Shown here piece by piece: positions 803 to 61,326 of a stretch of 64,000 bases of DNA. Origin of the DNA: Lingula anatina (lineage: Eukaryota; Animalia; Brachiopoda); NCBI GenBank assembly GCA_051362555.1, contig CM120644.1, forward strand, positions 4,906,954 to 4,970,953, written 5' to 3'. Within the stretch, counting starts at the first letter, position 1; every line of letters starts with the position of its first letter. Below the pieces are notes generated by a model. The model was not told where the DNA came from and ran no database searches. It saw nothing but the letters and a program-made list of their open reading frames with translations. Made by a program: the position numbers and the translations under genes.

Positions 803-928
803 ATGAACATGTATTCACCAAAAATGATGATGTCCATGAAAAGAAAATTTTCTCAGTTGAGTGTCACAAATGAAGAGTCGGAGCCTGATGAAGACGTGGA
901 TGTTGAAATGACAGAGGTGAAGAATCAG
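803..928 (+). CDS. Candidate alternative first coding exon A (MNMYSPKMMMSMKRKFSQLSVTNEESEPDEDVDVEMTEVKNQ), phase-0 donor
   Basis: 42 open codons from ATG 803 (several in-frame Met, so the true start is uncertain) to CAG|GTATAG at 928/929. Protein-like composition (KRKF basic patch, acidic tract), followed by AT-rich intron-like DNA. Confidence 0.6.
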
Positions 929-2539
929 GTATAGTTTTATGTCCATTTTTCAATGCCCCTCATATGGTGGATAAAGAATGTACACTGCTGTTTATGCAAA
1001 CATGAATTGCTATATATTTCGCCAATATTTATTTATTGCAGATAAATCCATTAAAAGCATGTAAATATTTCAGCACCATGATAAAGTTTCAGATACTGCA
1101 TGGATTATATATGAAGTGCATATTTGTGAAATTTCCAAATTATTTTATGCATACCGAGGTGTTTTGTTGGCGACATTTACAGGTTTTACAGTTCATATTT
1201 ATATATTCCTCTGTCTTTGGACCGCTCCCCTTCTTTAACACCCCTCCCCCCTCATATCACCCCAACAACAATAACAACAACAACAACAACACAATTTTGC
1301 TGTAGTGTACAGTGATTATACACTGTGTATAGAGTGAAGAGACCCATTATAGATGTATGATAGCTTAGAATCGGCTCATTCACGTCCTGATAAGACATCT
1401 TCAATGTTTACCTGGGTCTAGTGTATCACAGCAATATTTGACATGTATATACTAGTACACACACTGATAGCAGCATCAAAGGGTTTTTTTTCATCTGGAA
1501 ATAGGTCACCCAGGGCATTGACCTAGATTTCTGCCTTAGACAGAAGGCTGGCTGAAGTTAACATGTGTGCTGTAAATTTATTGGATTTTCATATAATGGT
1601 GTTTACTGTGTTAACATTTCTGAAAATGTGAAATAATAATAATAATGAAGATGAGGATGATTGATGCAGAGCTTTAGCAAAATACCAGTATGTAGTTACA
1701 GACCTGCAAAACAAAAATAGATTAAGGAAAAAATGTTAAGAAGAATAAAAGGATGAAAAGAAATGTGAAAGGTATCAGTTTTAATCAAGGCAAACAGCTG
1801 TACATATTGAACCCCAGCTAAGGTTAATGTTGTGACATTTCTTCAATGGTGTACTCAGTACTACATATATTGTAAAACGTATCTCATATTATTATGGCTA
1901 AAACATTAATTGCTTTGATTTACTTCCTAACATGAAATTTGGATAACACTTTATAGGTAATCAAAAGCAAAAATCAATACGTAATACATGCTTTGAAGGG
2001 CAACAGCATTTTTTTCTGAACAAGAGACAAATATGTAGGGAGGTTGGGAGGGGGCGTGGGAGGTTTGCAAAGTGAATGTTTCAGAGGATTGTGTTAGGTG
2101 AGCTTGATTGTTGTGAAAGCTAAGCATTCACACCTGTATTGTGATTGATATTGGATGTGATGGCAGCAATGAGACAACATTGTGGCTTTGAACATAACTT
2201 CATTTCATTGAATTACTGGTACCTTTTACTGGAATTGTATATATCTGTATGTAATTGCGTTGCTTACTTGAAATTTATTTACTGCATTATGGTTAAACAT
2301 TGATAGCTTTCAGTGTCAATAGATACTTATACATTGATAATTAAGAATTTGGGTGCATGGAAAGATACAAGTGGTGAATTAAGTTGGTCCACATTTGAAA
2401 GGTGTCCCCAGGGTTTCAGATGTCTTACCCACAGGGTAATGCCTTACAAATCTGCTCAAACCCACAACAGAGAAGAGCACTTGGTTACTCAGTAATGATA
2501 TTTGTCAGTTTTAGACTATTGCACAAAATGTTGAGAATA

Positions 2540-2666
2540 CGGTAAAGTTTTGAAAATTTCGTCATACCCAGGAGTCGGGGAGAGGTAATTTTGAAAAATT
2601 AGTCGGATTTACACAATTAAAAATATTAATTAATTTTTAAGCGACGAAATTTTCAAGACTTTACCG
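2540..2666. mobile_element. MITE with TA target-site duplication (Tc1/mariner/pogo-like)
   Basis: TIRs CGGTAAAGTTTTGAAAATTTCGTC / GACGAAATTTTCAAGACTTTACCG, flanked by TA on both sides. Confidence 0.8.
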
Positions 2667-2998
2667 TAGGTCTGATGTGAATGATTATAGCTGCTATTTA
2701 TAACAAATAAATAATCTAAAATTTTTTTTTTACCTCTTTTGTCTTTTAAATAAGTGTAGAGAGAAAACTGTAGTAGAGTCATGACAGTTTTTTTTTTCTT
2801 TCAGTATTATAATCGCACTTTTAGGTATAAAAATTTCTACTTTTATTGTAGGCCAACAGCTTATTAAATACTTGTAGACCAAATTTGCAGTGCCACTTAA
2901 TGCAGTTGCTTCCTTAATATTAGCAGCTCAAGCACAGTGGAATTTAGAACTAAATACTTTTTTTTAAATACAGCCGGACACCCTGTAATATTGGTTAA

Positions 2999-3333
2999 AG
3001 GGATAATAACTCTTCGTATGAGATCTATATTTCACAATAAAAACATTGTGAATAATTCATAGAAATATTATATATTCTGTTTTACCATAAAAATGGCAGT
3101 TATAGCTATTATTCTGATATTTGAGCTTGTCTTTAGACCATGTGACCTCCACTGATGGCTATACTCTGCTAACATCTCTTAGGAGATTTTAACAAAAAAC
3201 CAAACTTTTTAGAAAAAAAACAGGGACTAACTTTGAATGTAAAAATGGATTCATTAACCATTGGTAAGTGGGAAAATTGTTGTTTACTCCAGGAAAATTC
3301 ATTTTTTGGCCAAAACGAAGAGTTATTATCCCT
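2999..3333. mobile_element. Non-autonomous TIR element with TTAA TSD (Kolobok-like ends)
   Basis: Perfect TIRs AGGGATAATAACTCTTCGT / ACGAAGAGTTATTATCCCT, with TTAA at 2995-2998 and 3334-3337. Confidence 0.8.
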
Positions 3334-9400: not shown

Positions 9401-11961
9401 TGGGTCTACCACAATAATGTGGATACGTCATATTTGATCAGTTCAGTGGAGTTCTACTTCATAAACATCCTCTGTGAGATAAATAATTATAAATAAGACT
9501 TGCTGTATGCTGTAAGGGCATCTGTTGACATAACAGAATGGATTTTGTGATTTTCACATTATTTGGGACGGAGACATTCGTGTACACTTTTGTTGTATAA
9601 TTACAGTTCATGGGTGGAAGTTCACATTACCTTATTTACAATTGTTGTACAATAGTCTGATTGGTCCGTGGTTAGAAGTTGGAATTACCTTTCATACATC
9701 ATTAGTGAATTGAATAGCCGATGGCAGATAGTATTTCCTGGAAATAACCTAGTAGCTCGGAGCAATGGGTGGAAATATTCTGCAAGGATTCACCAAATCT
9801 GTACACTTGGAGGGATCTTTACGACAAGCCATGCATATATCTGGTTTGGTTTGTTTGACATATACTTTGTGGACATTGGATTTTCCTACGTCATTTCACA
9901 TGATTTGATCTGTGATTTTAACTAGCCTGTTACAATTCCACTGAGGAATTTGGACCAATTTGACTGGATTTTAACCTGCGTTTTATCTGTGATGACATTC
10001 ATGACCTGACCAGCCCCAGGGACTAGGTTACATTTCTGCGTTGTTTTTAAATACTGTTTTTCATTTGTGGCAGATTACACTCAAATCAGCAACTTTTGAG
10101 TGGATATGGCTGATATGCCTTAATTACCTTGTCTATTTCTGTGAAGCAGCAGTGTCCGTTAACAGTGTACAAACACAACTCGTTACCATTAGTACAATAT
10201 AAAGAGAACAAACAACTCGCTACTTAACCGCTGTGCAAACATTCCTTGTATCTTGATTAATGACTGCGCTCTCTCGCCGAATCAATTGGATTAGCATCAC
10301 AAAAAGACAAGTTGGCAGTGAAGTTAGTTAGACCACAGCAAGTAAAGGTGTTATGTATGCGTATACAGGAAGACATACTATTAATAACCCAGGAGTTGGC
10401 AATTCCCACAGGTATATTTAGTATTTGTACATTTATTGTTGCACCTTGTGGCAATGTTTAAACTGAGCCGGTGAAAGTGAAAGGAGACTGCTTGAGGGAG
10501 TGCGCTGACCTGCCTAATGACCTGTGTCTTATCTGGACTCAGACGCGGTAGCTGATAACTTGTTGGTGGACAGATATCAATACTTTTAATATCACCCTGG
10601 AGCTGTGATGCCAGCCAGTAGCTGGGAGCTTTGCTTGGATGGATCTCGCTGAATTTCCTCTGCATAGGAAATGAGCCAGATAAGGTGATTAAAAAAAATT
10701 CCCAGAACTGCTAATGAAGTTGATTTTTGTGGCTAATCTTCGTTAGTCTACCTGATAGCAGTCCATTTATCAGAGGTCCCAGAATTCTTACACCCAGTGT
10801 AGGAGCCATTGCATCAGTTGTTTTTTATGCGAGGAATAGGGTCGCTCTTAAAGAAGGCATCTGATGGAACACTTTCATATTGACTGAGTGGATCTGGCTA
10901 CACCTGCACTGAGAGACGGCTGCTGATCATTTATTAAGGCATATCAGTATTAAATCTGACTTTGTTACCAATGTAACAACAGATTTGCTCCTTGATTTAA
11001 GTACAGAGATTTTCAAAAAGTTAACCACAACATCCAGAACAATTTGATTGATTTTTTACGTCTTTTGCGCCACCTCTTGCTCTGACCAGTGGTATTTCCT
11101 GATGCATTTATTCCTGTACATGTACTTTTCCTATATTTATACTTCCGTGACTGCATGCCCTGAATCAGTTGGAGCTTAGATTCAGACGCACGGAAATAAT
11201 TGTTGATTTTCTGGCTAGACGTCGCCTGTTGGTATAACTACAGGTAGATATTGACAGGATAAAGAACACACAGTGTGACGGTACGTTACTTTTGAACCCT
11301 CTGGCATGTGACACAGATTATAAGACAGTTCAAGCAGGTGAAGGAAGATAGGAGGGTGGACTCTTGTTTAGGTCAAGAAGATTGTACTGAAGGATTTTTG
11401 CTGAAACTGCGCCTTTTGCAGACAGTGATGCTAGCAGCGTAAGACAGTATTCCTGGACTTCTTATTGTAAGTTGGTGTAGAGCTGAGTAACTGAAAAAAC
11501 TGTTATTTTATCTGGCATAAATCTGTTTGAAAATACCTGTGATTCCCCCATCAGGAGACTATAGTGGCTTTAACATATTATAGCTCTTATGGTAAATCAT
11601 GGCATGACTAGACATTGACTTAATATACATATAATATAATATAACACCTGCAGGGAATTACGTCACGCCACATTTAGAATAAGAGGAAAGACTTTTCCTT
11701 CTTTCATGTGTAGAGCTGCCAGATAAGAGGGGGTATTGCACCTGACGCATAGTTAAAAAAGCTGGAGGCAAAATACACTGCAACTTAACAGGTTACTGAC
11801 ATTTGGAGTGCCATATTGAAAAGACGAGGAATTAACTTGCCTATATATTCAGCAGGTATTTTTTAAGGTGGCAAGGCATTACATAACTATTGAATTATTT
11901 TTTGAATTGTCATAAAAATAAGGAATTTAAAAACAGGATTTACTTTGTACGTCTGACTACC

Positions 11962-12390
11962 ATGCCAGTTAGAGAGCCGTGGGTAACGGAGGAGTCAGCT
12001 TTGCCTAAAAGTGACCCAAATCGAGCAGCTAGACCTGTGGATTTACTGCCTAATTCGAGTCCTAATCTGAGGAAAAAATTACAACCACAATCCCCGAGAA
12101 TGTCAAGTCCAAGTTTGCGTAGGAAGGTAGGTCCAGCGCCACCAGGTTTCGACCCTAATACGGCGTCTGCAGGAAGTCAGGTGACACAGACCAAAGTGGT
12201 GCCGTTTCATAACGACGATGACAGAAACTTGTTGCAGAAGACTCTGCAGCAACTGGCTATTAAACAGGGCAGCAACAGTCCGGTCAACCAGAGACGTTCA
12301 CAGAAGATGAATATGAGTCCTTGCAGCAGCCCGCGCACCCCACGATCAAGACCTAGGAGTCCATTTCTGGAGACGCTGAGTGAAGAATCG
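11962..12390 (+). CDS. Candidate alternative first coding exon B (143 aa, Ser/Pro/basic, disordered; MPVREPWVTEES...RSPFLETLSEES), phase-0 donor
   Basis: ACCATG start context, GC-richer than the flanks, protein-like sequence. Donor TCG|GTAGGG at 12390/12391, after which the ORF becomes AT-rich intron-like translation. Confidence 0.85.
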
Positions 12391-13994
12391 GTAGGGTTAT
12401 CAGTTTTTATCATTTATTTTTATCAGTATTGTTATTACAAGAATCATATGTGTCTAAAATCATTGACTTTCATCTTTGGTTTTTTAGCCTTCCAAATTTC
12501 TTTAAATGCTAGCTCTTACAGTACATACATGTATATAAATTATCCTATATTTCTACATGTATGATATTCATCTATATATATGTTTTCCCATATTCTATGA
12601 AGCACACATATTTCATATCTCTCTTCACCATAAGGGTTTGCACCTGTCAGAATGTGGATAGAGCGGAGATATGGATTTTTTTTTTTTTTTTGCTTTTATG
12701 TTTCTTGCCCAGTCTGCTGGCACCAGTCACCAGTTATGCTATAACTCATAGTGCGATGAAGGACAGGAGTTCGTAAAAATTTTATATTATTTTACTTCGG
12801 ATGTCTACTTTTGACATTGTCTACCATTACAGCAATACATTATTTGTATCAAGCGGCAGACAAAATGCTTGATTTTGTGCTAAAAGTTATTTGTCATTTG
12901 AGTGAAATATATTGAAATGCAAACACAAGTAAGGTGTTGAGTTCTACCCAGGCCTTGTTTTCTATCAACCCAGGAGGAACTTGGGCTTCTAGATTTTGAC
13001 ACTGTTTCAGTTATAAGGAACCATTGAGCTGAGGATATAGATCTGTCGGTATATTGTTTTTCTTACAAAATAGAAATATCTGCAATGCAAACATATTTTA
13101 TGCGAAATCTAAAATAAAGATTGGAGACAGGTGGGCTCTGAAACTTCATACATCTTGGCTTTATATAACAGTTTCAGGTGTGCAATCCACAGGTATTGAA
13201 TTAGAGGGTCAGGGCTTTATCTAATGGCAGCCGAGGCTGAACTCTAGTGCCCCCATTTATCAAACACCAGTGCTCTTTTACTTATAATTAACCTTTGGGC
13301 ATATTCTAGACCCAATATGTGAAAAATGCTTACATGTCTATTAGTACCCTGTAGTTGCCAGTGATATTTTGTTAAAAGAAAGGTGTAGAGAAACAGCAAT
13401 TATATTTGGCTGGTATTCTAAATCCCATGATAATTTTATACATAAAGAATGCTGGAGGTAGAATAGTGTGTTTTTGAAAAATTGTGTAGAAAATGTGCTA
13501 TAAATTTGGGCATTTTGTCAGGTCTGTTTATCTTTGTTTTATGTATTTCACATTGATTAACAGTATTACATATTTTCATTTTTCTGTGCACAAGAAACCA
13601 TGTAGTAGATTGCCTGCCATAGCCCACAGTCACTCATTTCAATGGAAGTGAATGATCACTTTTAATATTTATTTATATTTTAAATTCTGTTAACACCCCC
13701 ATGCAGTAAACACCTGTAGAACGGCTCAGGTGGGGATGGCAGAGGATGACCTTTAATATGGTGGCCAAAATAACCCCACCATCTATACATGTACAAGGTG
13801 CTTTTGTCCTCCAAACTGATTGCAAAATATGATATTTATTCAGGCTATCAGTCCTTAAACAGTGGCAATGATTACTTCAAAACAAAAAGCAGGGTGCAGC
13901 ATTTAGAAAGGGCTGGTGCACTCTGAGAGGTGAACTTTGAAAGGAAAAACATCTGCTGGCTTCTTGTGTCTTATTTTAGAATATTTCAAGATCG

Positions 13995-14039
13995 GGTGAT
14001 GGAGTCACATGATAGATCAGGTGATGGAGTCACATGATA
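13995..14039. repeat. 25-bp tandem duplication
   Basis: GGTGATGGAGTCACATGATA occurs twice, 25 bp apart. Confidence 0.8.
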
Positions 14040-14678
14040 AAGAAGGGAAAACATGTATACACAGGGGGATGTGACATGATTTCTCTTAATTTATTCCAAA
14101 AGGGGTCTATAGTGTGCTTTCAAAATAAATGCAGTAAACGGAAAATTAGATATTTTAAGATAGATACTAAATGAATATGCATGTAAATAATCAGTTAGAT
14201 AAGGATTCCATTTCTTGCAGAGGGTGCCAAGAAATTTATCCCAAAACAAAATATCTAGACTTAAAATGTTGGTCTCAAAGTTGAGATCAACTTTTGGTTC
14301 TTTAGTGAAAGAGGCCATGGGTGCACAGGTCTGCTGGAAAGAAGACCTCGGCTCATCAAAGACCCTCTCACATCTGCCTAACCTGTAATTTATTGGCAAT
14401 CAATTCTCCTTACACACGCAAGTGGCATTGTGACGAAGGATCGTGGCATTGATCTCTTTGAATACAGGGCTGGATTATTCCGCTTCATTTGGCAGACCAG
14501 TCAAGATGTCATCAGGGAGGAGTACTATTTATAATGGATCTACCTGCAATGTTATCAAGATGTTAGCAATGTGTTTTCTTTATAAAGATGTTATGCATTC
14601 ATGTGTAATTGAAATACTGACTAAGACACCTGTACTCATGCCAGTGTAGCTTGCATGCTTGCTTATGCACATATGCAA

Positions 14679-14681
14679 AAA

Positions 14682-14728
<47 letters not shown>

Positions 14729-14729
14729 A
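14679..14729. repeat. (AAAT)n microsatellite
   Basis: Direct reading. Confidence 0.95.
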
Positions 14730-45311: not shown

Positions 45312-46799
45312 GTCCTTTTCTAATACCCAAGAAAATAAGCCATTCCTTTGGTCTTTTTTTCTCTGAATAAGATAAAACAGATGGATTAATAAGTTAATAA
45401 AAGAAAATTGAACGATTAAAAGAAATGAAACAATGGATTAGTTTTTTGAGCATTTGAGATGGACAAGCTTTTCCATTCATTTCGAATTGTTTAGTTTATT
45501 TGTTTGCATTCAGGCACGCGTGTGAGTGCTTACATGTCTGTGTGTATGTATGTGCTCATATGCATTTTCTCATATGCATGTACACGTGTGTTGTTTATGT
45601 TTAAGCATGTGTGTGTGCGCATGTGTTTGTGTGTGTGTGTGTGTGTGCACGCAAGCACGTGTGTGTTAGCAAGTGGGAGAGGCAATCCATGGCATGGCAA
45701 TCATCAGAAGTTTTTATTTGTCTACTGTCTAATATTTACGCCATTTCCAGTAACTCAATTACCCAGTTCGTGATGTTATTATTGTTCAACACCTGAAGCC
45801 AATTGCAGAGAGACCACAGTTGAGATTATCTGTGAAAGCAATAAAAGTCCTAGTAGTGGTTGTTGTTGAGTGCTTTCCTTAGCAAATTGCTATGAAATGG
45901 TCATTGCCAAATGGTCATTGCCAACAATGTTGATGAAAAAATATTGCCTTTCATCGCAATTCAAGTCCATAATAACGACTGTCTTCTGTAAACTTGTCAA
46001 CACATTTTACTGGCTTAGCAGTAAAGCCATTACTAGTATTGATGCTGGAATTGTAAAATGATTTGTATTTTTTATCTGTTATGGGAATCCAAATGTCTGT
46101 CTTACAATCTGTTTTCTTCCTGAACTAGAGCCAGTATTGGTGTTTTATGAAGCTAGCAATTGCCTTTAGTTGATGGCTTAAATAACGAGTGGTCTATAGA
46201 TACTTTCCTTGAAAACAATACAGTGTAATGGCATTGCAGTTATTGTTGGTGTAATGGTGGTGAACTGTATAGACAGATGCTGCATTTGAAGTCACCTTAA
46301 TCTCTCTCTCTCTCTCTTTCTCTGTCTCTGTCTCCAGAGCCAAGATCTAATACTGTAAGATCTAATACTTGCAGGCCCCACCATTTATACAGTGTTGTTT
46401 ATAACATTGTTTTCCTCTGTGCTTTTATGTTAATTACTGACTGCAAACACAATCTCTCATGTCTTAACAGTTGAGTTTTACAGCTGAAAAAAAAAAGTTG
46501 TTTTATAGAAACGGGAACTGGTGGAGTTGTTTTAGTAAAGTGCATATGATTAATGACTTAAAATCACTTTGTATTGCTTAAAGCAAGACTGTGATAACTC
46601 TTCATAATATTTGGAGATAGTGTTAAAACACCTTGATGAAACAAGTGATTTTGACAAATTGCATTGTTTAAACAAACTTTGCTATCATGGAGTATATCAG
46701 GTACATTGTTTGACTTCTAATGAGTCAGATAAAGCAGCTGCTGTTATCATGTGAGATGAAATCTAATCAAAACTTTCACTCAACAATGCACACACTGCT

Positions 46800-46990
46800 C
46801 CCGTGGCGCCATTTTGTCTGCCAATTCAGGACATTCACCTCCGCTGAATTGTCTCACCATCCTGATGCTCTGATTGGCTGTTAGGCACCTGCCGTAGGGT
46901 GTGGGTTTTACAGCATCCCAACCTCGCCGACCTTTACCATGCTGCAGCTGCTGTGACAGTTTTTCTTAAAAAGGTTGAAGACAGTGAGTG
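46800..46990 (+). promoter_or_regulatory. Promoter/enhancer-like GC-richer island
   Basis: YY1-like CGCCATTTTG at 46808, NF-Y-type CTGATTGGCT at 46870, and possible donor ACA|GTGAGT at 46984. Confidence 0.35.
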
Positions 46991-48849
46991 GTCTCAGTCA
47001 TTTACTTAAGGACAATGTGGGAGATAGAGATAATGAGGGATACTGTATTCTGTATGTTACGTTTGGTGTGAAACTGCATCTACGTGACAGGGTTTCTGAT
47101 TTTTGTCAATGCAAATCTTGATGCAAAAGTAGACAAAGAACTCTGAGGAAAAGTTAAAAAAGTTGCATGCATGGCCATAAGCTCATTATAGCCCGGTGTC
47201 AACCAAAACTTAGTCTGCATCACATCAAGCTAGGGGTTAGAGCATTTCAAAGACAGATATAATGATATTTATGAAGCCTATCAATAATATGGACAGTGAC
47301 CAAACAGACTGAAGTTCAAGACACTGTGCTAAGTTATTCATCAATTTTCGACTCTCACTCTTTGATCTCTAATTCAAGGAAATGCATTCGTTGCCACACT
47401 GGGCTTGGACTTGAGCTAAAGAATGATGATTTGATAATGACGGGTCATAGAAACTGACAACTGAAATCTCAAGGCTGCTCATCTCAAAATCTTTTGAACA
47501 CCAATAAACTACATCGCCTCATCTGATGTCATCATTCCAAGGAAAAATAAAGAAAAAAAAATTGATCTTGCTGCTGGAAATAATAATCTAAGGACAATAC
47601 TGTAGGTTATACTTGGTTTGCAGGGGGGTCACCTGGAGCTCTTTCAAAATAAATTCATCATTAATAATAACTTCACAGGCCTCATGTGGCTCCATAAAAC
47701 TGACTAGGAATATGTTTGTGTCTTTTTTTTATGGTGACACGGCAAAATGGACAAGGATTGATAGTGGGTTATACAGAGTTGAGAAAGGCAAGTTTTTTGC
47801 ATGCATGGTGCTCAATATTTTTTTAAAATACCCAGATTCAAGGTCAGATATACGTGTTTGCTGTCTGCACCACTTGGAGGAAGGTAAAATATATAATAAC
47901 CGTGTAATTGCAAAGAAGCACACATAAAATTGGGGCATGATAAGCAGTTTAAAAATCTTGTGACCCTCCTGGGACGCAAACACCTGAGGGATATGTTTGA
48001 AAACGTCGAAGTAGGGAATGAAGGAAGGAACATGACACCCTTTGTCAACTTAAAAATACTGAACAAAGCAAGACAAGTTTAAAGAACATGTCAGATACTG
48101 AATGGAGGCGAAGTTTATGTTATAATATTGACTTGCTGCATTTTGTATTAGTTGTTGTGGAATACCAACATTGCGGTAGACTTGTGTTGAAGTAAAACAA
48201 GTGTATGCTGTCATGTGTTAAGAAAGAAAGTTATGCGTCGTGCTTTAATATTGACTTAGTGCAGGAAAGGTGGAATATGAGCTCTGGTCATTTGAGGATA
48301 TTTGAGGATATTTACTCAGGCAAACCTTCTCTTGGATACACAAAAACAGTAACATAAGGGATGAAAGTCAATAAGTAGGCCTATTATCTCTTTGGAGTTC
48401 AGTTTAAGGATCAGCATATATCTGCACCCCACGTCATCTGGGATGTTCGGAGAGCTCTCAAAAACAATTTCACGTTACTGATTTATCAAAGTAGCCTGTG
48501 TAGTTTTGATATTAACCAGGCGAGTTGAGCCCCAGGTGATTTTAGAAAAAAAATATTTGACGGGGAACTCTGATATGAGGGACTCGAGGAAGAGAGGCAG
48601 TGGGATTATAGAGATCCACACACCAATGTTACCAGGCATGCTATAAGCACACACAGGTATAAGGACACTTCAGGGGCACCTTTAGTGGTTTATATTTTTG
48701 GGATTTTGTTTTTTATGAGCCCATTTTTCCTCTCTGGAAGGGGTTTTCATATGGTACATGCCTTTAGGCAGGCAAACAGTGACATTGCTGCCTCAACAGA
48801 TGCAACAGATAGACACGTTTTTCATGTAAAAAAGCAACTGTGGAATTAA

Positions 48850-49100
48850 TCAGCCAATGGTTTGGTCTGTAGCTGATAATCTTGGAACAGCTCGTGACAT
48901 GCGCTGGATTGGGGTCACCCCTCCACACAATGCATTATACAGTGACTGTCCAAGGACGAACCCGGTGACATTTTGCTTTAATGAGGGGACATTCACTTGT
49001 CTGACATAAATTTTCAGTGAGTCAGCACTTTTTTTGACACTTGGGGCATTTTTGCTATAAATTGCAGATGTGCGTGCACGGGCACTGCTAGACGTAGTGG
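48850..49100 (+). promoter_or_regulatory. Candidate TATA promoter
   Basis: CCAAT at 48854, ATTGG at 48908, AP-1 site TGAGTCA at 49018, TATAAA at 49056, followed by GC/CpG-richer UTR-like sequence. Confidence 0.45.
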
Positions 49101-50996
49101 AGACGGACTTTTGTTTGTGCCTATTGAACAGGTGCCCCAGTGCTCTGAAGTGTGGTGTTGTCACGGAGGTCTGGTTTTGGCGAGACCGTGTTGCGGAGAC
49201 GGCTGAATATTTGTGTACAAAAAGGCTTACCTGGTGATTATTTCAATAGGTACAGCTATAGCATACTGCTATCATATTGTGTCTGATTTAAGATCTTGTT
49301 TAGTACTGTTGTTAATGCAGACACACATCACTGATGCAGTACGGTACTTTTGTTTTGTACTAGAAACTATAATTTGTAAATTTACCAGGATTTAACAGCA
49401 CTTTGTCAATTAAGAGGAAAATGATATTGTCTGTTGACATATGACCTAGAGGATATATTATCTTAAATCAGTTTATGTCTGACAACTCACTGCCCAGACA
49501 AAAACTCTGCAGAGTACAGTTTTAATTGAGCAACTCCTCTGCAAGACAACAAGCTGCCAACTTTAAATTGACTGATTATTTATTGAGATACGGGAAGGCA
49601 ATGTGGATGGGTCTTCTCTCCACATTGATCAGTCTTAGTTTCCCATGTATTTAACACTGACAATTACAGAGAGGTAATCAATCGAGAGAGAAGAGGAGCT
49701 ACAACCTTTGGGGCAAAAGAGCAAAACAGGCAAAGACATTTGGCAGACAGCCATAAATTTCCCAGGAATTCTAAGGAATTTTACGTTGTACCATTGAACA
49801 AATTTATTTGATTCAGAACTGTAGTTGGTAAGGATCTTCAGATGTGTTGGAATTTGTCTATGCTCGGCTCAACAAGATCCAGGAATTTCTAGGAATTGTA
49901 GGACCACTTGCATAGCAGCAGGACTTTCTATAGTTGTAAGACATTAATTTGTTTCCTTGAGGAGACATCAAAGATTCGTGCTGAAGTGATAATGCATGGC
50001 ATTTCATTTTGTGCAGATAAAATTGGTTATATATTTGGCAAATTACTCCAATGGACAATGAAATAAGGTCACATAGATATAAAGCATTTAAGAGGGAAGG
50101 TTAGAGATTCTGGGTAAAATTTTGGAAGAATTTCTCTCAGCACCACATTGGAATTTTATCGAATGGACAAACAAATGTGACAAAAGAAAGGCACCAACTT
50201 TGTGTCTGGGGACTTGTGTATTAGAATGGTTTACACCTCTACTGGGACAACTTTCACATTTGACATTGTCATATTGCCTCAGTTGTCTAGTTTAACTCTC
50301 AGACGTACAATTTTTTAAAAGTACTTGGCAGCTCTGATCTGCCGAGAGATGTATGCTAAGACCTCCAGGCTGTACTTAACACGTTTTAACAATCTTACAT
50401 ACACCATATCTGCTTAGTTGGCAGCACGCGACGCCTTATTGAGACATATTGGATTATAGGCCCAGCTGTGTGCGTTCTAGTGAGGATGGTCTTGGTTTGA
50501 GCACCTCTAGGTGAACATTAACACTACTTAACACGTATAACCATTGATGTCACTTAGATAAAGCTCTGATCACTTACCTGGACTTGATAAACACAAGATA
50601 TCGTTCCGCATTACCAGGACTGAAGCTGATATTGATATATACTGTGGCCTGAGAAGTATTTATTGGGGATTGCTGGGCTGAAGATTATCCAGGCGATTGT
50701 ACTTAGGATACATAAATTATTATTATCTGGATTGGGAGGTTTGTGACAGAGGTAGCTACAGGGAGAACTCGCAGCACTTTGTTCAGCATTGTTCTCCAGT
50801 GCCATTTAGACACTTCGATAGTTGCATGGAATTTCTCCGCAGGCATTCTCAGTAAATCCTGGATGTTTTTTATCTAATCAAATTCACTCTGGGTGAATAC
50901 CATAAACAACAGACCAGGAATTTTTATTGAGGAAGGGGTATTTTTATATACATAGACAGTTTCAGTCTAGGGTTTGAGGTGAAAATATCAGGGAAA

Positions 50997-51071
50997 ATGT
51001 ACTCGCTGAGGAAACAACACCCCACTCATACCATACAGGAGGACGTCTTAGATGACTGTTATGATAGAGAG
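50997..51071 (+). CDS. Candidate alternative first coding exon E (MYSLRKQHPTHTIQEDVLDDCYDRE), phase-0 donor
   Basis: AAAATG start, 25 codons, donor GAG|GTAGGG at 51071/51072, then a switch to low-complexity intron-like DNA. Confidence 0.65.
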
Positions 51072-51327
51072 GTAGGGGATCACATTAAATTACACATATA
51101 TATCATCTAATTATCCATTCATCTGTCCATCCTTTCATTCATTCTTTTGTCCATCTGTCCATCTGTCATTTGTTCATCTATTCCCATCCATAAATCTTTA
51201 TCTTTCTTTTCTTTTTGACTCCACCCATCTGTCCATTCTTTACTAGTGTTTGATTCATATTAATATATATATATATATCAACATTTTACTTCTTTTTTAT
51301 CACTGTGCTTTTCCATGTTCAATCAAT

Positions 51328-51360
51328 CATTCATTCATTCATTCATTCATTCATTCATTC
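51328..51360. repeat. (ATTC)n microsatellite
   Basis: Direct reading. Confidence 0.9.
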
Positions 51361-52234
51361 TTTATGACCTCAATAAATGTTTATGAATTATTAAAAAAAA
51401 AAAAATAAGATTCATTTGCAAAGATTCCTTGTGCTGAATATGTCTGACACAGAATTCTATGCATGTAATGAGGCTTACCATTACATAGATTAAGAAAAAG
51501 ATATACGAACATAATATATAACATGATATAATATTAAAGCATGAATGGCAAACTGTCAAGTCTTCCAGCATGTCTAAGTGTTACAAGGCATGTGTTAGAG
51601 TTGAACACTCACCGTGCTATTCAGATATGTTTAAACAGGCATAAAATATACATTTATGACTTTATAGTGTGGTTTATCACACAGTTACTGTCAGGAAGAC
51701 ATGCTTGACATTTTGCAGTTAACTTTATCTGAATATTTTTTTTTTGATGGAATAGGATCTTTTTAAAAATCATTTATATTTATATAGAACTTTGTATTTG
51801 TACACAGGAAAAATAGTCTAATAGTCTAATAGTCAGGTATTAGAAGCCCTGGTAAATTTTCTAAGTGGCAAAGGACATTTCTTTCTGGGACCTTAGGATT
51901 TGGATTGTGTCTTTGATTAGTGAGGAAGGTGTCGTAAATGTTGTCATTTGTGCTTATATTAAACTTGACATCCCCTAACCTGTACACTCAGCTTAAAATC
52001 TGACTTTTTAAAAATATCTTTTTCACTGGTGTTTATTTCATATATTGGACATAAGTGCTGGTTTAGCTCTTTTTGATTTTCAAAGATATACACCTGTCTG
52101 CACATATTTAAAAGTGACTTAGATTTTTAATTTTAATTAATTTTTTAATTTTTAATTTAGCTGTCATATGTTAAAAAGATTTTTTGTCATACATAATAGT
52201 GATAACGCTATAACAAGAGGATGATGGACTTTTA

Positions 52235-52491
52235 GGCTTCGTTCACATGCAATGTCTATTTTCTAATTTCTATTTTCTATTTGCGCTATCTTATGATCAC
52301 GGTCTGTGTCCTGAATATCCCGCAGCGTAATTACTGGCAGCGCGAGCCAGTTACTTATAGTAACTTATAGTAACTGGCTCGCGCTGCCAGTAATTACGCC
52401 GCGGGATATTCAGGCCACACACCGTGATCATAAGACATACCGCAAATAGAAAATAGAATTTAGAAAATAGACATTGCATGTGAACGAAGCC
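52235..52491. mobile_element. Fully palindromic MITE, copy 2, TTA TSD (PIF/Harbinger-Tourist-like)
   Basis: Perfect terminal GGCTTCGTTCACATGCAATGTCTATTTTCTAA inverted repeat, TTA at 52232-52234 and 52492-52494. Nearly identical to 3448-3705. Confidence 0.92.
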
Positions 52492-55400
52492 TTAGTCTAA
52501 ACTTTGAAATGCTTTACAAATTATGTGAATATTATGACAACTAAATCACTCCAATTGTTCCCCTGCTGCGTACATCAGTGCGTGGTATGTAACTAAAACT
52601 AGCTATAGTCCACCTGAAATCAAAATTGATTTGTTTTCAGCGTATCTTCTGAGGCCCCTAGGTGTTTTACGTCCTTTTTGGCCTTTGGAAATATGAATCG
52701 GTATTTCTGGTACATATTTGCACTGCACCAGGTGAAAGTGCACCCGTGTCATTTTTAAGAGCTTTGAAATAAAATTTTGTTAGAATTTTCAAGGATTATT
52801 TTATTAAGAATATTTAGATGATTATAAATGCAATGTCAGCACCTAACTTTCACAAAAGTATGCAACTGTTTGATCATGTGATCATGTTTTTCTTTACTGC
52901 AACTTTGAGCAATTCTTAAAACTTTCTAAAATTCACTTTAGAAGTTAAGGACCAAGATAACTCTTAAAATCAAAAACCGGCTAAAATCATGATTCAATAG
53001 AATTGATACCAGATAACCTAATTTTGTAATTTGTATCTTTTGATCCCTTAATGAATTGATAGTGTCAAGGCATTGTGCACAGATGTTCACTCTAAAAGAC
53101 TTATCTTTGCCGTGAGATAGAAGAGGCCGTAGCATACTAAAGGTACAGTTCTACTAGATTTACTACATGCAATATTCCACTTCCCCATCGTTTGTATAGC
53201 TCAAGGGCAGCAACTTAAAAAGTAGCCTTCTGCTTTTATTTGATCGTACCCATGTAGTTATAATGCCCAGCTTTATTCATGCGATAACCTTGTGATCCAG
53301 AAACTCACCTTACCTATCCCACACACATTGTTTATGTTTTATCTAAAACTATGGGAATATATTGATATGATTACTAGTATAATGATAATGATCGTAACAA
53401 TTAATGAAAATTATTATCATGAAGAATTCATAATGCATTCAAAATAACCCATTCCAATAGACATAACATTTATTAAAATTACAATATTGTGAAATGAACC
53501 TAGCCTGTCAGGTAATTTTTGCCTTTTATTGCAGTGGTCTGCTATGATATTGCTAACATTGTTCTGGTTAATAACACCACTGGCATAGTAATTGATGTAA
53601 ATGTTAGTTCTGTAATCACAATCTGTCTCAGCTAACACAATTAAGTACATCAGACATACAGGTAATATAAACTCGGTTATCTTGTTATTGGAGAGAATCG
53701 GTGTTGTAATAACCCCCTTAATTTGTTCAATCACTTATGCTTCTGTTTGTGGGTTTACACATAAATAAAAAATAACAAAAAATCTTGAACAACATATATT
53801 TGAATGGTAGAGGTGTGTGAAAATTTGGGAAAAATTGGTGAAACTGGGGAAACTTTCAGACTGCCATTTAATGTTAATAAAGGCAGTTTTAATGAAACAG
53901 TGTTTTTGCCCAGTGTTGGCAGTTTTTTTTTTTTTTTTTTTTTTTTTGGGGGGGGGGGGTATTCAGATAAACTTTAAAAAATTATTTCCTTTACTGCTTG
54001 CCTTTCAGCATTATTCTCTTTTTTTGCCTCTCTCATCTTTGCATATAACTTGATTGAAAAACATTTTGTCAGTCCCATTTACAATCATATTTATCTCTAG
54101 GGAGGAAAAAAAATTCTTATGCACTACTGTCTAATCAAACATGCAATAAATTCTGGGGACAGTTATTGCCTACTGCAGTAAAACTATAAGAGGATCTTTA
54201 CTAGCAGTAGCCAGCGATTTTCAGTCGATTTTTTTCTGAGAATTGTTTTCCTGGTTGATTTTATATCCAACTTATCAAAATGAGTCATTAATGTAATGAC
54301 TTCACTATCAGCCATCACAGACACACTTAGATACAAAAAAATTCAAAATCTGCTGATACTTTACGGCAATGTTCACCCCTAATTTGTTTTTTCTCATTGT
54401 TTCGTGACTACAACTTATCAATTTTTGCATCAATAACTTATGAATGGCCATTAGTTTGCTTTTAACTGTGCCTTCAATGAAGGAAATGTATTTGCCTCAT
54501 GTGGCAGTTGGGAATGTTTTATGAATGCCAATTATTTCAGAAGCTTTATTATCAGACTATCTGCTGAATGTGCACTTAACTTAGGTGGCAATATCTGTAT
54601 TTGATTACTTTTTTATTTGAATGACAAGATTTTTTTGTCTGTTTTTGGCAAACCTATTTACATATTTATGTATTTTTCCCTGCTGCAAGACACAATTCAC
54701 TTTGTTTTTGTTGGAGACTTGAGTGGAGAGTTTTGTGAAATTTGTCACTTTGAAGTAGACTGGGGCAATTTTAGCTAATTCGATATGAAATGGTGAGTGT
54801 TGTTCCTAAAGGCAAAGATGGAGTATAGAATAAGATTATCAGAGAAGACTTTTTACTTTATAATACTGTTAATATGAGAGGAATGTTAAAAGACAAGCAT
54901 GAAGATAGGTGAAAGTTAGTAGTAAGGCTTCTAGATCAAGACAAACCAGGTAGTTCACGTACAGCTAGCTGACTATGCAAGCCATAATGTGTACTTTTTA
55001 ACGTAATTTAGTAAATAAAAGTCCTTGCGTCTCTGGCGTATTTAGTCCTTTACAGCTAATTTCCTCAGAATAGCTGCTGGTATTTATGGGACATTAAGCA
55101 AGCAGAAATGCATTGCAGGTTTGAAAGGGTTTTTTATCCTTTTATTTGATTCCTTCTCCGATTTTATTTCACCATCTGCTAAATGGGTACATCCTGTTGT
55201 TTAGAGGGAAAATAATGAATTAATGAACATAAAAATGAAAGTTAAAGATGAAATGCAATTAATTTAAATCAAATTAGTAATTGATATTTGAATGTCGCCT
55301 TCAAAACAAATTGCTGTCATTGTATTTTTTTTTTCAAACCTAAATCTTAATTAGCTAATGCAGATCACTCATTTTTTTCCATCATACCTTTTTGGATAGG

Positions 55401-58400
55401 AATTATCAGTGATGATAACATGTTTCCCATTATCAATAACTTACAGTAAATGATTTGTCTAGATATTCTACCAGGGGATGTTATAAGAAAAAGATGGCAG
55501 ATCATGATTTATTTTTTGCTTTGACAATAAATATCATGTACCCTCACTGAACCTTAACAGATCAATTTGCCAATGTATAATTCCCAGTTGGCAATATTCT
55601 ACATGTCAAATCTAAAAGTACATCTACCGTGTACCTCTAGCAACGTGGCTTGCCTGGGAATCATTCAGCCAAAGAAATATTCATTAATTTCTCGTAAATA
55701 CACACGTAGAAAGTTCATAAAGTCTGTTTTAGTAAAGTGGTTTCAACTGCGTTTGCACAGTTGTTTCTTTGTATACTGATGCTGGAGTAAGTATGTGTGT
55801 GCTCGTTTTCTTCAGATATCTTTAAGGTTTAATGATAAAATCAATGCGCAAGTCGTCTCATAAGGCATGAATGCATACTTAATTCTATCAGTGTGCTTGT
55901 GTGTGTTTGCGTGAATGTGCATGCATGGGAGAGATTGAAAGGGGGTGCATTTGTACATGTATTGACAAATGCATTCTTGCATATATATTTCACTCTAGTC
56001 TCATGTGCAACTAAACAACTAAGTAGAGGCAAATAACTCACTTTGCAGAACAGGAGAGAAATGAAGCTGTTTGATATTGTGAGTACCCTCAGTAATTGCC
56101 TCATCAAGATTTCCTTTCCTTTGTTCACCCAATCACAAGCCAATCAGAAGAGTGCTTTTATTGATTGGGGGGGTTTGCTTTGAGCATGTTTACAACCTAC
56201 ACTCTAGCGAGACAGGTGACTTTTGACAAACACATTCTTGATGTGGAACTTTGATGTTGATACCAATTTTTTTTGTTACCACATATGTGGTTGAATGCAG
56301 AAATCATCCTGTTTGTTAAGTGGTTTCTGTTCCTCCACAAATTTGAGTGATTTCATTTAGTTGTCATCTTTTGCAATAAGTTACAAGGATAATTAAAATT
56401 GTAAATTTAGATAACACACTTTTTTGCATGAATTGCTCGATGCATTTCTAATATGATAAACCTCGTGACATGCTGCATAACTAACTTATAAAGTAAGAGA
56501 AAGTCGGTTTGCCTTTCTCTTGGCCCTGAAAGTTAACAAGCACCCCAAAAGTATCAATATTTGCCAGGGTGAATGCAGCCAATAGCAGTCAAATACAGTA
56601 ACTACAGAAGTTTCAGTTAGCGCTGATGTGAACGCAGCCAGTGACTCATAGCAGGGTATTTTCCTGGAGCTGAACTGGAGGTAAACATGTTTACATCGGC
56701 TCTGGTTCACGCTAGTGAGCAGTGTGCAGAAAGAAAAAAAAACTTAGCCAATATTGACATTTTGAAGTAACTTGTTTTTGTCATTTGATAAGCTAATCAT
56801 TAGGTTCATCGGCGGGCAGACAAGCAATAAGTTAATGGCCGTAATGGTATGATCTCTGTGAAATAACAACCAACACAGCCAGAGACACGTGCACATTTAG
56901 AATAAAAAAAGGTGTGAAGTAGAAATCGGCTAAATGTGGATTATTTATTTGACTTGCTTACAAAGTAGCCAATATACAGCCAAAAATAGATGTCAAATTT
57001 GTCAGGTTTATGTTTTTGACTTTGGTCCTGGCAAGCGTTTATTGACAAGTGCTGAAGATAAATTGTCAGAAATGTGCATGACAAGTTTTTAAGCACTGAG
57101 TTATGTCTGTAGTTTCATGGTCTTACAAGTTGCTTAGCTGTACACAAAAAGTTTTTGTTCTGCTTTTTTTTTCAGCTGAGATGATACTAGTAATTCAATA
57201 ATGGGCAGTTTCAATAGCATGCTTATTTTAGAGGGAGGGGGGATACTGGAAAAAATACAGGACTTTGACAAAAACAAGACTGACTCACTGTAACCTTATG
57301 ATACCAGATTTGAGTAACACGCTCATGACAATTTAGAGAAAAACACACAGGAAAAATGTAAACACTTGTATGATAATAGGCCTAAGTTATGAACAGGTTG
57401 ATTTCTGGTCCACACGCTGTTTATAAATTAGTCCAAGGCGTGGACACAACAGTTTGTGGTTTGGGATCTCCTTGGGGCTGATATTGTAGGAGCTGAAGAG
57501 GCGGAATTACGGATGTTGTAGAGATATTAAATGGATGAAGGGTTATGTCTGCCACAGGCAGTGCAGGTTGTTGTTTTGGGTCCCTGGTTTGTTATTATGG
57601 GTTTATCAGATCCTAAACAACCCTTCAATAACATGTCTTGATGATAGGTGAAATAAATGTGAGGACATCTAGTGCAGGTGGTTTTAAGGGTTCATCTTAT
57701 TTTTCAACTTTGCTGACACTAGCCATTCAATTTGCTAGGTTGATTTAATCATTATGATGTTTTTAAGATAGTTATCTCCAAGTTTTAATTTTTTTTAAAT
57801 AGATGCACCTGTTTATTGGGGGTTCTATTTATTCCCTGGCTGGCCTCATATAGGAAGCATTGTTGTTTTACTTTATGCACTTTAATAAGAAAGGGAAAAA
57901 TTAAGTGAAAAAGAAGAATGATAGAGGCAAAGAATGGATGTGCATATGGGGGAATTAAGAGATTGGGAAATGTTCAAGAGAGAGATACAATAGTTATACA
58001 AGAATATTAAAGCCATCTTTTCTGGCACCATTTCTTTCTTCTCTATTGTTATGGTCAGGTAACTGAAGATAAGATGTAACTTTAGGAGACAAAAGATTGG
58101 AAAAAGAAACCCAAGTTCAATACTAGAGTTTAATACTGATGCAAGGTGTCCTATACTCCCTGGGAAGTCTTTGTGTCAGAGAGAACAAAAATCAAAGAAA
58201 TCAATTTTAAAACTTTGAGGTGAGCTTGTTGCTCAAACATCTGTGATTTGAAAAAAAATTAATCATTAAAAATGAGTATTTATTTTACCATTCTATTTTT
58301 TCAAGAGTTATTATTGTACCCACAAAATCTTTTTCTACAGTGCCCCGTTCCATGTTATCATATTTTTCAGGTGGTGGGGGATGTTTTGATTAATTTAGTT

Positions 58401-59607
58401 CTTGTACAGTCTGTCTAATAGGAAATTGTCATATAGAGGCTTAATTAATATAGAACAGATGGGTAGTCATCTGGCAATGTACTTCACCATTGTTAAGACT
58501 CAAGTGGCAGTTAAAGGCAGTAAGAATACCTGAACCCTCGGTTGGTGGTTGTCTGTATTTTTTTTCTGATGATGTCCCTTTGTACCTTTACCCAGTACAC
58601 ATGATGTTATGAACATTTACCTCTCTGATAAGGACATGTTGAAACAGTCAGAAATGTTTGCAAAGAAGATAATGACTGGGTATCAACTGTTGATCATGAG
58701 CTATTACCAATTTTCCAGTCTCAAAATGAAGTGGGGATCTCAAACCTCAGTCAGTGATCACAATACGCCCTCCCACACACTGATTTCATTCATATCACAG
58801 CTGAACATTGGCATTTTCCCTGGATACAAATTGAACCATTCCCAGTGACCCTGAAGGGGAGACTTGAGGAGAACCATAGCAGATATATATGCTTTGAGAC
58901 CACAAACTGTAGGGGTTCTGCTTCCCCTGATAAAAAATCCCATCAGCCAGTTCATCCTACCTACCAGTAATCTGTGAAGTAGCTAAAACAATTTTGGCCC
59001 ATGTAATGTTATAATTCAAAAGCCATTTTATTTGAAATCTTTTTCATTATCCTAGCTCTACAGATGTAATTACAAAATGGGCTGCAGCAAGGCCATGTAA
59101 AATGAAAAAAAAAATCAATCAGTTGTGAAGAAATGAAGAAACCCTAATAGAAATAGGCAAAGTTTATCTGGATATATCTCCTGAGGAAGTCACTCTTTTT
59201 TTGTCAGATATTTATATAGGAGCAGATAAAAGAAAAAGGAAAGAAGAAAGAAAAAATGTGTAAAGAAGTGCAAATGGCCTTTTAAAGTGATACTCAGATA
59301 TATTTGTAATGTTCAAAGCAGTTGGGAAAGGCTGTCCTTATCTTTTGTTACAACATGAACTCAAAATCAGGGCATGTTTATACAGCAAAAACTTTTTTCT
59401 TTTGTTGAGTATGTGTATTTTGAAGCAACACGTATCAAGAATTGGTCTGGTAAAGAAGACAAATGCATCTGAAGAAATTCAATTTTTTTTTTTTTACACT
59501 TGCTCAGTACTCCATCCATCAACCAGTGACAGGTACAGGTAGTTGTAGTTCATATTAAATGGTCCATTAAGAGTCCTTGCTGACTTCATCAAAACTTCTG
59601 GTACTTA

Positions 59608-59874
59608 GACTGGGTTCCTATACCTAGATCGATCTAACAGGATCGATCCATCGCTGAGGGAGATTCTCGCTAAATTGCTTTCTGCTTAAGTGGCTTAGAT
59701 TTCTGTTGTGCCTACTGAAGCTGCTAAATGATAATTAATTACCTCCTAGCAGCTACAGTAGGCATGTTGATCAAACATCTACCAGTAAACCACTTAAGTT
59801 GATTGCAATTTAGCGAGAATCCCCTTGGAGATAGATCAATTCACGGTAGTACGATAGGGTCTGGGAATGGTCCC
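59608..59874. mobile_element. Degenerate palindromic MITE with TTA TSD
   Basis: Inverted arms GATTCTCGCTAAATTGC / GCAATTTAGCGAGAATC, CTTAAGTGG / CCACTTAAG and TGCCTACTG / CAGTAGGCA, with TTA flanks. Confidence 0.75.
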
Positions 59875-61029
59875 TTATACCCTGTACACTGACAGCAAGC
59901 AGAGTGCAAAGATCGCAGAAGACTTTGTGGTAGTCCTGGTATGGGTCTTGTGGTCTGTTTTCAAACACTGCCAGAACTTGCTGTAGATACTTGCATGGAG
60001 TCTGGGAGCTAGAGAGTGTGCTGCGTTTTCTCCAGTGGTTTAATGCACGGTACTTTTGGTTGCTAAAGTTAATGAAGAATATTGAATTTCTTCAGAACTG
60101 TCATTGTCCTTACGTCAGAATTTGTTTTAATGATATAGAAAATTTAAATCTTATTGCTTTATTTATTTGGCAGTTGAAGATATTAATAAAATATTCTTCT
60201 TGGTTTCTTTATGTTGCTGATTTGAAGGCAGATATGTGTTAACTATTGTGACGTCAGAATACCTTCATGCTAATAAACTTGTTCATTGGTTTTCATTTAA
60301 ACAAACTAGCATGCAGCTTAATCAATAAAAAAACCAGTCATTGTAAGGGTCAAAAACTGATTGATGCATGGAAACACAGGTTAAATCCAATAGCGGCTGT
60401 TATTAATATTGTCCCAGAGTGACTAGCTGCTCTCGAGTAGTCTGAAGTTGTCTGTTGAAATTACCCAGTAGCAGGTGCTCTGAAGACTTGTTATTGGAGG
60501 AAGTCCATTAAACAGCATCTGTGTTTTTCTTCTTCTGCAAAATTGGATTAAGAAGCGGGCAGTAATTGTGATGTTTTAACGCCAGTGGAATGAATATGAG
60601 GTGTACTAGGACAAGCATGTCTGGATAGGAAAAAAGGCAGTTATACACAGCCTGGTCATGCCCATGTAGAAAATTGATAACGTGAAGGAAACTTTGTGAC
60701 CCTTGACCTAGTTTTGGTAGCGAGTTGAACAAACTTTTATCACATGCTCCTTTGAGACGGTGGCTTTAGGGAAAGCTGGAAGGAAGGTTTATCACTGTGC
60801 CTCTAGTCAACTGTATTGAGGACTCATTGAGTGAAAGGAAAGCAAGGTGAATCTGTAAAGGAAACATTGCAGCTTGGGATTAAAGACTTAATTATTATTA
60901 TCAATCATATGTTAAGAATACTTAGGTGAAAGCAAAGTAAAGCTTGGGACCATTGCAGTGCAGTCAAGTCGTCCTCTGTTGAATTTTTTTTCACCGAGAC
61001 TGGTTTCAGCGTATTTTGCCCACACCAAG

Positions 61030-61326
61030 ATGTTATCTGAGCACACGTACCATCATCAGGCTACTGGGGGCCATGGTCGTCATAACAAAGTTCTTCCCTG
61101 TGTGGAAGTACCAGACAACAAAGCAGAAGAAGAAGATGAAGAGAAAGACCAAGTGTTTGAGTTAAACTCATTACCAAACATGTCACAGCACATGCACCCG
61201 AACAACCTGCAGCACTCGCAACACGCGCTACATGTGCATCATGCATGGGGGCATAACATGCAACATACCTCAGGACATGCCGTGCAACATGCATCGCAAA
61301 CCAAAGAAGGTTTGGCAGCAGAAGGG
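61030..61326 (+). CDS. Candidate alternative first coding exon F (99 aa, acidic then His/Gln-rich; MLSEHTYHHQ...KEGLAAEG), phase-0 donor
   Basis: AAGATG start, protein-like composition, donor GGG|GTATGT at 61326/61327. It lies inside the 147-aa track ORF. Confidence 0.8.

Follow-up and report, generated by a model that had tools for sequence, protein, structure and literature searches.

Here, we found that a 64,000-nucleotide stretch of Lingula anatina DNA (the window) carries alternative N-terminal tips of one AMPK gamma subunit. The database matches, from which the gene name is taken, place the window at the 5' end of the gene for an AMPK gamma subunit; four of six isolated + strand segments (Table 1) are joined to the gamma core in database models, and one of these joins is also seen in RNA reads. 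We consider it probable that the array consists of alternative AMPK gamma first exons, likely with separate promoters, to which segments 1 and 3 possibly contribute two more. Arrays of this kind are already known, and most of the Lingula isoforms are already in RefSeq. The new point is that the exon shared by the isoforms opens with a stretch near-identical to residues 39-51 of human gamma2a.

Table 1. Features of the window
Feature	Position	Strand	Description
Segment 1, candidate first coding exon	803..928	+	42 codons, basic then acidic patch; unannotated
Transcribed region upstream of segment 2 ATG, likely long 5' leader	11250..11961	+	Run X4 depth up to 7, one orientation
Segment 2, coding part of alternative first exon	11962..12390	+	143 aa, Ser/Pro/Arg-rich; N-terminus of X1 and X2/X3
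Intron of segment-2 transcript	12391..64000	+	Holds segments 3-6; partner exon not in window
Segment 3, candidate first coding exon	22557..22616	+	20 codons, Cys-Cys near start; unannotated
Segment 4 (corrected start)	37495..37629	+	45 aa; N-terminus of X5
Segment 5	50997..51071	+	25 aa; N-terminus of X8
Segment 6	61030..61326	+	99 aa, 16 His; N-terminus of X4

RESULTS

Identity of the locus

Segment 6 matches, over its full length and with 98% identity (97 of 99 residues, E=1.8e-56), the N-terminus of a CBS-domain protein of 754 aa that the database names AMPK gamma isoform X4. The same gene is annotated in Lingula anatina as LOC106170538 (RefSeq X1-X11; XP_023933005-13, XP_013405874/77/78), and its annotated N-termini include three further segments: segment 2 is identical to isoform X1 at 143 of 143 residues, segment 4 to X5 at 45 of 45 and segment 5 to X8 at 24 of 25, the database proteins of the latter two then continuing into the shared exon. 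RefSeq derives such isoforms by automated modelling with RNA evidence, and in these models the AMPK gamma core continues in frame from four of the six segments. The first-pass annotation had supposed that automated annotation might miss such segments, which is wrong for these four, and it had started segment 4 at 37573, where the in-frame ATG at 37495 gives the 45 codons that match X5. The LOC106170538 annotation includes neither segment 1 nor segment 3, and its X6, X7, X9 and X10 tips are not in the window. Summed over the four tips, 3 of 312 residues differ between the window and RefSeq, so the window likely represents another haplotype or assembly.

All ten members of the isoform X4 cluster were examined. 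Nine bear one of eight distinct tips followed by the same motif, with an identical 655-aa core in eight of these nine; the tenth, X11, starts inside the shared exon and has no tip. In the database isoforms, Pfam detects CBS repeats (E=1.4e-35; three stretches pass on their own), and the shared core gives a single continuous match of 312 residues to human gamma1 (E=1.5e-120). This core lies outside the window. By homology, the protein would bind adenine nucleotides and assemble with alpha and beta subunits.

Another gene family was considered on the strength of the Cys-Cys of segment 3, which we take to resemble that of calcium-channel beta2a. N-terminal exons of a calcium-channel beta subunit (SH3-GK core) were ruled out, as the segment 2 reads and four models join an AMPK gamma exon. 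The window also holds no convincing instance of the calcium-channel exon-1b motif (PMC3972191), and no convincing match to an ankyrin motif.

Arrangement of the segments

The six + strand segments had been described as open frames that begin with an ATG and close on a codon boundary at a GT (42, 143, 20, 19, 25 and 99 codons), with starts 10-15 kb apart, and this is what we find for all six, segment 4 being counted here from 37573. They are mutually unrelated, none of the 15 pairs falling in the top 3% of 300 shuffles; in a wider comparison of 45 pairs among 10 modules, the three flagged pairs all include modules from outside the window. The statement that the window contains no shared coding exon likewise held: the first 20 loose-end bases of the partner exon have no match in it at up to 3 mismatches, and the shared core finds nothing better than E=1.7 by tblastn. 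The central proposal, that the segments are alternative N-termini spliced to one phase-0 exon outside the window, stands for segments 2, 4, 5 and 6 by RefSeq, and for segment 2 also by reads.

Segment 2 in RNA reads

The read test covered 11250-12550. No reads of runs X1 and X3 aligned to this stretch. In run X4, 26 reads aligned, all with the first mate on the - strand, an orientation that would indicate + strand RNA for a library made by the common stranded protocol. Three reads of this one run leave exactly at the segment 2 donor and enter the shared exon, which in the database protein comes directly after segment 6, and depth drops to 0 past the donor; the join seen in reads thus concerns one of the six segments and the first shared exon. 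Read from its first loose base, the loose end would give Thr-stop. We rejected this reading because the alignment still includes the listed position, 12391, the donor G being also the first G of the exon; the depths add up accordingly, and in the database proteins the next residue is Asp. Should the shared exon be located downstream on this contig, the segment-2 intron would be at least 51.6 kb long.

Reads of run X7 over 11250-12550 show no junction. They differ from the window at five positions within segment 2, four at third codon positions and three silent. Upstream of the segment 2 ATG, 11250..11961 contains six short upstream ATG frames; the transcript start was not reached, and one run X4 read passes an end of the 11250-12550 stretch. 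No transcript start cluster was found in the run X4 reads over this stretch.

Could the pattern of the segments arise by chance?

An ATG, an open frame and a GT alone are at background: with a donor score >=2, we counted 18 phase-0 stretches on the + strand and 15 on the - strand. Once the criteria also took in GC content, a fall in GC at the donor and a purine at position -3, the phase-0 counts became 7 and 0, respectively, and the other strand and phase cells 3, 2, 2 and 0; from this background, one to three passes per cell are to be expected by chance. Across 288 threshold settings, the + phase-0 cell strictly exceeded every other cell in 268 (mean 8.6 vs 2.5-3.7), with filter features that were picked after the segments had been seen and a donor matrix of assumed frequencies. 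Phase 0 itself needs no special explanation, because any coding first exon must fit the phase of one shared acceptor.

This background bears on segments 1 and 3. A tentative alternative, to which we give real though lesser credence, holds that only the four annotated segments are exons and that these two are chance ATG-to-GT stretches picked by eye. Both are missing from all ten cluster members, the 15 comparable stretches on the - strand indicate how readily such frames occur, and each fails one of two sequence tests: segment 1 has the weakest donor score (1.2) and fails the GC-drop filter, and the codon score of segment 3 is ordinary (27% of the background is as high). However, the other four segments picked by eye all proved right, one of them with only 25 codons. 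Moreover, segment 1 has a codon score like those of annotated exons (0.7% of the background is as high), and segment 3 passes the exon-likeness filter, with a consensus GTAAGT intronic donor, 57% GC and a GC drop of 0.30. We keep segments 1 and 3 as possible alternative first exons; the Cys-Cys tip of segment 3, as a candidate, could be palmitoylated.

Searches with individual segments

A homologue search with segment 2 returned none among 384 candidates and one with segment 4 returned none, though both sequences are in the collection; the searches covered cluster representatives, the representative here being isoform X4. A full HMMER scan with segment 2 gave two repeat-driven matches, rejected as unrelated, and the ESM Atlas gave one 0.77 match without a family. 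There were no matches for segment 3 in the PDB, none in Rfam and none for the partner-exon pattern in metagenome contigs, and no convincing exon in the GC-rich stretch at 61.9-62.1 kb.

The shared exon and human gamma2

In all four matched isoforms, the tips are followed by the phase-0 shared exon, which opens DLSSFAMPVL. When the 13 residues that open the exon are compared by eye with residues 39-51 of human gamma2a, 11 are identical. The exon begins an extension of about 320 shared residues before a conserved Cys, with 10 SP/TP sites and three RPR-x-x-S motifs; the brachiopod extension is long and Ser/Pro-rich before CBS1, as in the gamma2-long type. An exon boundary of human PRKAG2 presumably falls before Asp39; a literature search for it by variant name found no paper. 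The start of gamma2c is placed in exon 2, and the reverse primer used for mouse gamma2c is the complement of the codons for D-L-S-S-F-A and stops precisely with that for Asp (PMC3477313). Human gamma2c starts at Met45, and in Lingula X11 the start is likewise the Met within this motif. One supplement file of PMC11879883 contains no match to the motif.

Inspected for a MAPK docking motif and a nuclear signal, segments 1, 2, 4 and 6 and the X6 and X7 tips show loose basic-hydrophobic patterns, by a permissive pattern without a control. A supplement row of PMC4670726 reports the region with the gamma2 docking motif as absent from cyclostomes and below, and this row concerns the residues ending at Asp39.

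DISCUSSION

We propose that segments 2, 4, 5 and 6 would serve as alternative starting exons, each joined in phase 0 to a single shared exon outside the window and each, we infer, expressed from its own tissue- or stage-specific promoter. The extension of about 320 residues and the CBS repeats are the same in every isoform, and promoter choice would alter only a tip of 16-143 residues. The CBS repeats of known gamma subunits bind AMP, ADP and ATP; the tips likely govern the site and timing of subunit production and add localisation or phosphorylation inputs, nucleotide sensing being left unaltered. This role is suggested by analogy with human gamma2 exon 1, which holds a nuclear localisation signal and a p38/ERK docking motif, and with fly loeI.

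It is also conceivable, if somewhat unlikely, that the tips are real and mostly by-products: selection would keep several promoters for control of expression, and the peptides would be neutral, lineage-specific exonised leader before the long extension. No tip has a relative outside Lingula anatina in the searches run, the tips are mutually unrelated and belong to no Pfam family at cut-off, and the tipless isoform X11 is annotated. Yet open frames of 143 and 99 codons have been maintained, most of the differences within segment 2 leave the residue unchanged or lie in third positions (a small sample), and particular tips have been shown to be functional in fly and human (PMC3435293, PMC4670726).

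We regard as improbable a reading in which the segments are internal exons that exclude one another, or come second to non-coding leader exons that they have in common, and in which one or a few promoters serve them all: the segment 2 transcript does extend 712 bases or more upstream of its ATG, to the edge of the examined stretch, with no start site mapped, and a pyrimidine-rich CAG lies ~150 bases upstream of segment 5, but no splice joint is listed in those 712 bases (run X4, low depth) and unrelated ATG-bearing exons 10-15 kb apart are the usual look of separate promoters. Alternative promoters are, besides, used by human PRKAG2 (PMC3477313).

Alternative first exons, likely with separate promoters, remain our preferred reading, and the shared exon raises a question of age. 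Since 11 of 13 motif residues match and an isoform starts at the motif Met in both species, the gamma2-type extension may predate the vertebrates. In reviews, the extensions of gamma subunits are described as unrelated and little understood (PMC11752127, PMC4995730). We give about even weight to the broader proposal that the long gamma2-type extension is no vertebrate invention and that lineages add their own first exons to it (up to ten in Lingula), wiring the energy sensor to various compartments and kinases. If this is true, human gamma2 would hold in this motif a functional element that has gone unrecognised, and gamma1 and gamma3 would have lost it. That a brachiopod has the 13-residue stretch from Asp39 in near-identical form points to a constrained, testable element within a human cardiomyopathy gene's extension, and to an earlier origin of this extension.

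How does this array compare with known systems? In UGT1A and the clustered protocadherins, many 5' exons are likewise joined to common 3' exons, and the variable exons are duplicated paralogues that encode folded domains. Unlike these, the Lingula tips are short, unrelated and domain-free, no related pair of the paralogous type being found among the six segments. Closer relatives are the AMPK gamma genes themselves, of which there are three in human and one reported in invertebrates (PMC11752127, PMC4995730), the latter being a single pro-orthologue (PMC4995730). Drosophila SNF4Agamma/loechrig is likewise a single invertebrate gamma gene with many N-termini, with 16 transcripts and six proteins (PMC3934941), and one unique N-terminus, loeI, is required in neurons (PMC3435293). 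Human PRKAG2 (AMPK gamma2a, 2b, 2c and 2-3B) also has several starts, from which its four variants arise (PMC3477313, PMC13142926), and a long extension in front of the CBS repeats. Since alternative N-termini of AMPK gamma are documented in fly and human and the isoforms are in RefSeq, the array is less surprising than was first supposed. The human variants enter at exons 2, 4 and 5, with one described coding tip before the motif, whereas the brachiopod models place eight distinct tips on one exon. The Lingula array is a well-filled example of how the single invertebrate AMPK gamma gene gains variety from alternative starts.

RESULTS

Over its full length, segment 6 matches at 98% a 754-residue protein that NCBI names AMPK subunit gamma isoform X4 of Lingula anatina. 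After residue 99 this protein goes on with the motif DLSSFAMPVL, as do the RNA reads leaving segment 2. All ten members of the protein cluster were examined: nine bear one of eight different tips (alternative N-termini of 143, 99, 45, 33, 29, 25, 23 and 16 residues) before the motif, while the tenth, isoform X11, starts at the Met inside it. The core of 655 residues is identical in eight of the nine tip-bearing proteins, and one lacks three residues. It bears CBS repeats and aligns with human gamma1 at E=1.5e-120; the gene is an AMPK gamma family member. The three residues missing from the protein of isoforms X2/X3 (P0005) lie in the shared extension and are present in the other nine proteins, and their loss is likely due to an alternative splice site.

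The RefSeq models show one gene with at least four tips in the window, eight overall, one phase-0 entry exon and one core. The first-pass annotation had proposed that all six segments splice to one common phase-0 exon downstream; the join to one common phase-0 exon holds for segments 2, 4, 5 and 6 (by models, and for segment 2 also by reads). The phase needs no separate explanation, since all splice to one acceptor. The tips of X6, X7, X9 and X10 were not found in the window (best E 0.14-1.0; two controls gave 2e-24 and 3e-47) and, as had been claimed, neither was the core.

Features in the window and their assignment
Feature	Position	Strand	Assignment
Segment 1	803-928	+	candidate tip
Segment 2	11962-12390	+	tip of X1, 143/143 identical
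Segment 3	22557-22616	+	candidate tip
Segment 4	37495-37629	+	tip of X5, 45/45 identical
Segment 5	50997-51071	+	tip of X8, 24/25 identical
Segment 6	61030-61326	+	tip of X4, 97/99 identical
Region upstream of segment 2	11250-11961	+	transcribed, at least 712 bases
Further phase-0 stretch	40361-40441	+	ATG to GT, passes filter
Further phase-0 stretch	48899-48964	+	ATG to GT, passes filter
Palindromic element, 225 bases	3483-3707		likely miniature inverted-repeat transposon
Palindromic element, 225 bases	52269-52493		second copy, 94% identical
Tandem repeat, 146 bases	62732-63472		about five copies
9/18-base repeat	62001-62043		in GC-rich patch adjoining the tandem repeat

Could such a layout arise by chance? 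All six segments do lie on the + strand, run from an ATG to a GT at a codon boundary and start 10-15 kb apart, and sequence comparison bears out that the tips are mutually unrelated; segment 4 is an annotated tip, with its start moved from 37573. The surrounding DNA is animal-like and rich in introns, with a GC content of 30-42% per kb. The ATG and GT criterion alone yields 18 phase-0 stretches on the + strand versus 15 on the - strand, which is not above chance. A filter adding GC content, a GC drop at the donor and a purine at -3 passes seven on + and none on -, including segments 2-6 and excluding segment 1, and the + phase-0 cell was largest in 268 of 288 threshold settings. As the filters were chosen after the segments were seen and the donor matrix was built from generic frequencies, this enrichment supports the array, short of proof. 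Of the two further stretches, the one starting at 48899 has a codon score in the top 0.1%, the highest among the unannotated candidates, and a weak donor; its longer frame gave no Pfam match.

Four of nine RNA runs carrying the same species label were aligned to 11250-12550 only. Runs X1 and X3 gave no reads there. Run X4 contributed 26 reads; in every one the first mate maps to the - strand, which under the common stranded protocol denotes + strand RNA. Coverage extends from the left edge of the examined stretch to the segment 2 donor, is interrupted at 12218-12349, and is zero past the donor within this stretch. Three reads exit at the donor into an exon reading D-L-S-S-F-A-M-P-V-L in the segment 2 frame. 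This partner exon was searched for in the window and is absent; since it lies outside, segments 3-6 must be left out of the segment 2 transcript. In reads, the predicted convergence of junctions was checked at segment 2, where three reads of one run join the shared exon; the other three joins come from automated models. The transcribed region upstream contains six ATGs with frames of 1-9 codons, a possible translational control.

From run X7, 35 reads aligned with 90-95% likeness, about four of them on the segment 2 exon; the 31 set aside match only a 33-base intronic piece (12404-12436) and have unrelated flanks. On the exon (11822-12130) its reads are only 90-95% alike despite the same species label, which suggests a diverged population or related species as the source; four of five coding differences from segment 2 fall at third positions and three are silent.

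Segments 1 and 3 have no counterpart among the ten cluster members. Segment 1 shows exon-like codons (top 0.7%) and a weak donor score, segment 3 a consensus donor with a GC drop and an ordinary codon score (27%). For each, the chance of being a real tip is about even or slightly better. The segment 3 peptide carries Gly-Gly-Cys-Cys near its start, then basic residues, which we take to resemble palmitoylated N-termini; if real, it would provide a membrane-anchoring tip for AMPK gamma. The suspicion that automated annotation misses the segments could apply to these two, which are absent from the models; most isoforms are already in RefSeq.

The segment 6 tip holds 16 His in 99 residues plus an acidic run, and its composition makes metal or pH sensitivity possible. 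In the X6 tip (P0012 residues 1-33; not part of the window), a stretch of basic residues precedes hydrophobic ones in alternating positions. By eye, no other tip comes nearer to the docking motif that ends the human gamma2a first exon; the pattern is permissive and had no control. In the shared extension (residues 100-240 of the isoform X4 protein, P0003), the motif RPR-x-x-S occurs three times, at core positions 25, 83 and 124, and these copies look like Akt or 14-3-3 sites; further short Phe-Arg and Phe-Phe motifs follow, by eye, the order of the human gamma2 extension.

DISCUSSION

Each tip is probably expressed from its own promoter, which would place AMPK gamma, reported as single-copy in invertebrates (PMC11752127, PMC4995730), under tissue or stage control. 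By analogy, the tip may alter localisation or kinase input, while AMP sensing would stay with the CBS core. The start of human gamma2a contains a p38/ERK docking motif (residues 28-37) that is missing in gamma2c (PMC4670726), PRKAG2 exon 1 encodes a nuclear signal (PMC3477313), the phosphorylated gamma2 extension binds 14-3-3 (PMC13142926) and the gamma3 extension is described as autoinhibitory (bioRxiv 10.64898/2026.08.16.744724). In the fly, neurons were reported to be rescued only by an isoform with a unique N-terminus (PMC3435293, PMC3934941). Neutral exonisation of the tips fits as well as function: no tip relatives were found outside L. anatina, in weak searches that failed to retrieve X1 and X5 of L. 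anatina itself as well.

The human gamma2 exon boundary presumably lies at Asp39. The supplement of PMC3477313 supports this indirectly, and of residues 39-51 of human gamma2a given there, 11 of 13 agree, by eye, with those that open the brachiopod shared exon; human gamma2c starts at the same Met as brachiopod X11. The adjoining docking-motif region is called absent below cyclostomes in a supplement row of PMC4670726, a statement that is not contradicted because it concerns the tip and not the shared exon. From this comparison of two species, the extension behind the docking-motif region looks older than vertebrates. The match is the one point beyond existing annotation. A literature search covering few subscription papers found none on Lingula isoforms, the shared motif, invertebrate gamma first exons or conserved long isoforms, and among the matches listed for Lingula and AMPK nothing on these isoforms appeared by title or abstract start.

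In summary, the array is real and was rightly spotted for at least four of the six segments; it is a known gene design, mostly annotated, and its modest interest lies in the entry exon, which is conserved, and in two possible tips absent from the annotation. The Lingula gene shares its working with fly SNF4Agamma and human PRKAG2 and, because its tips are mutually unrelated, is unlike duplicated variable-exon arrays.
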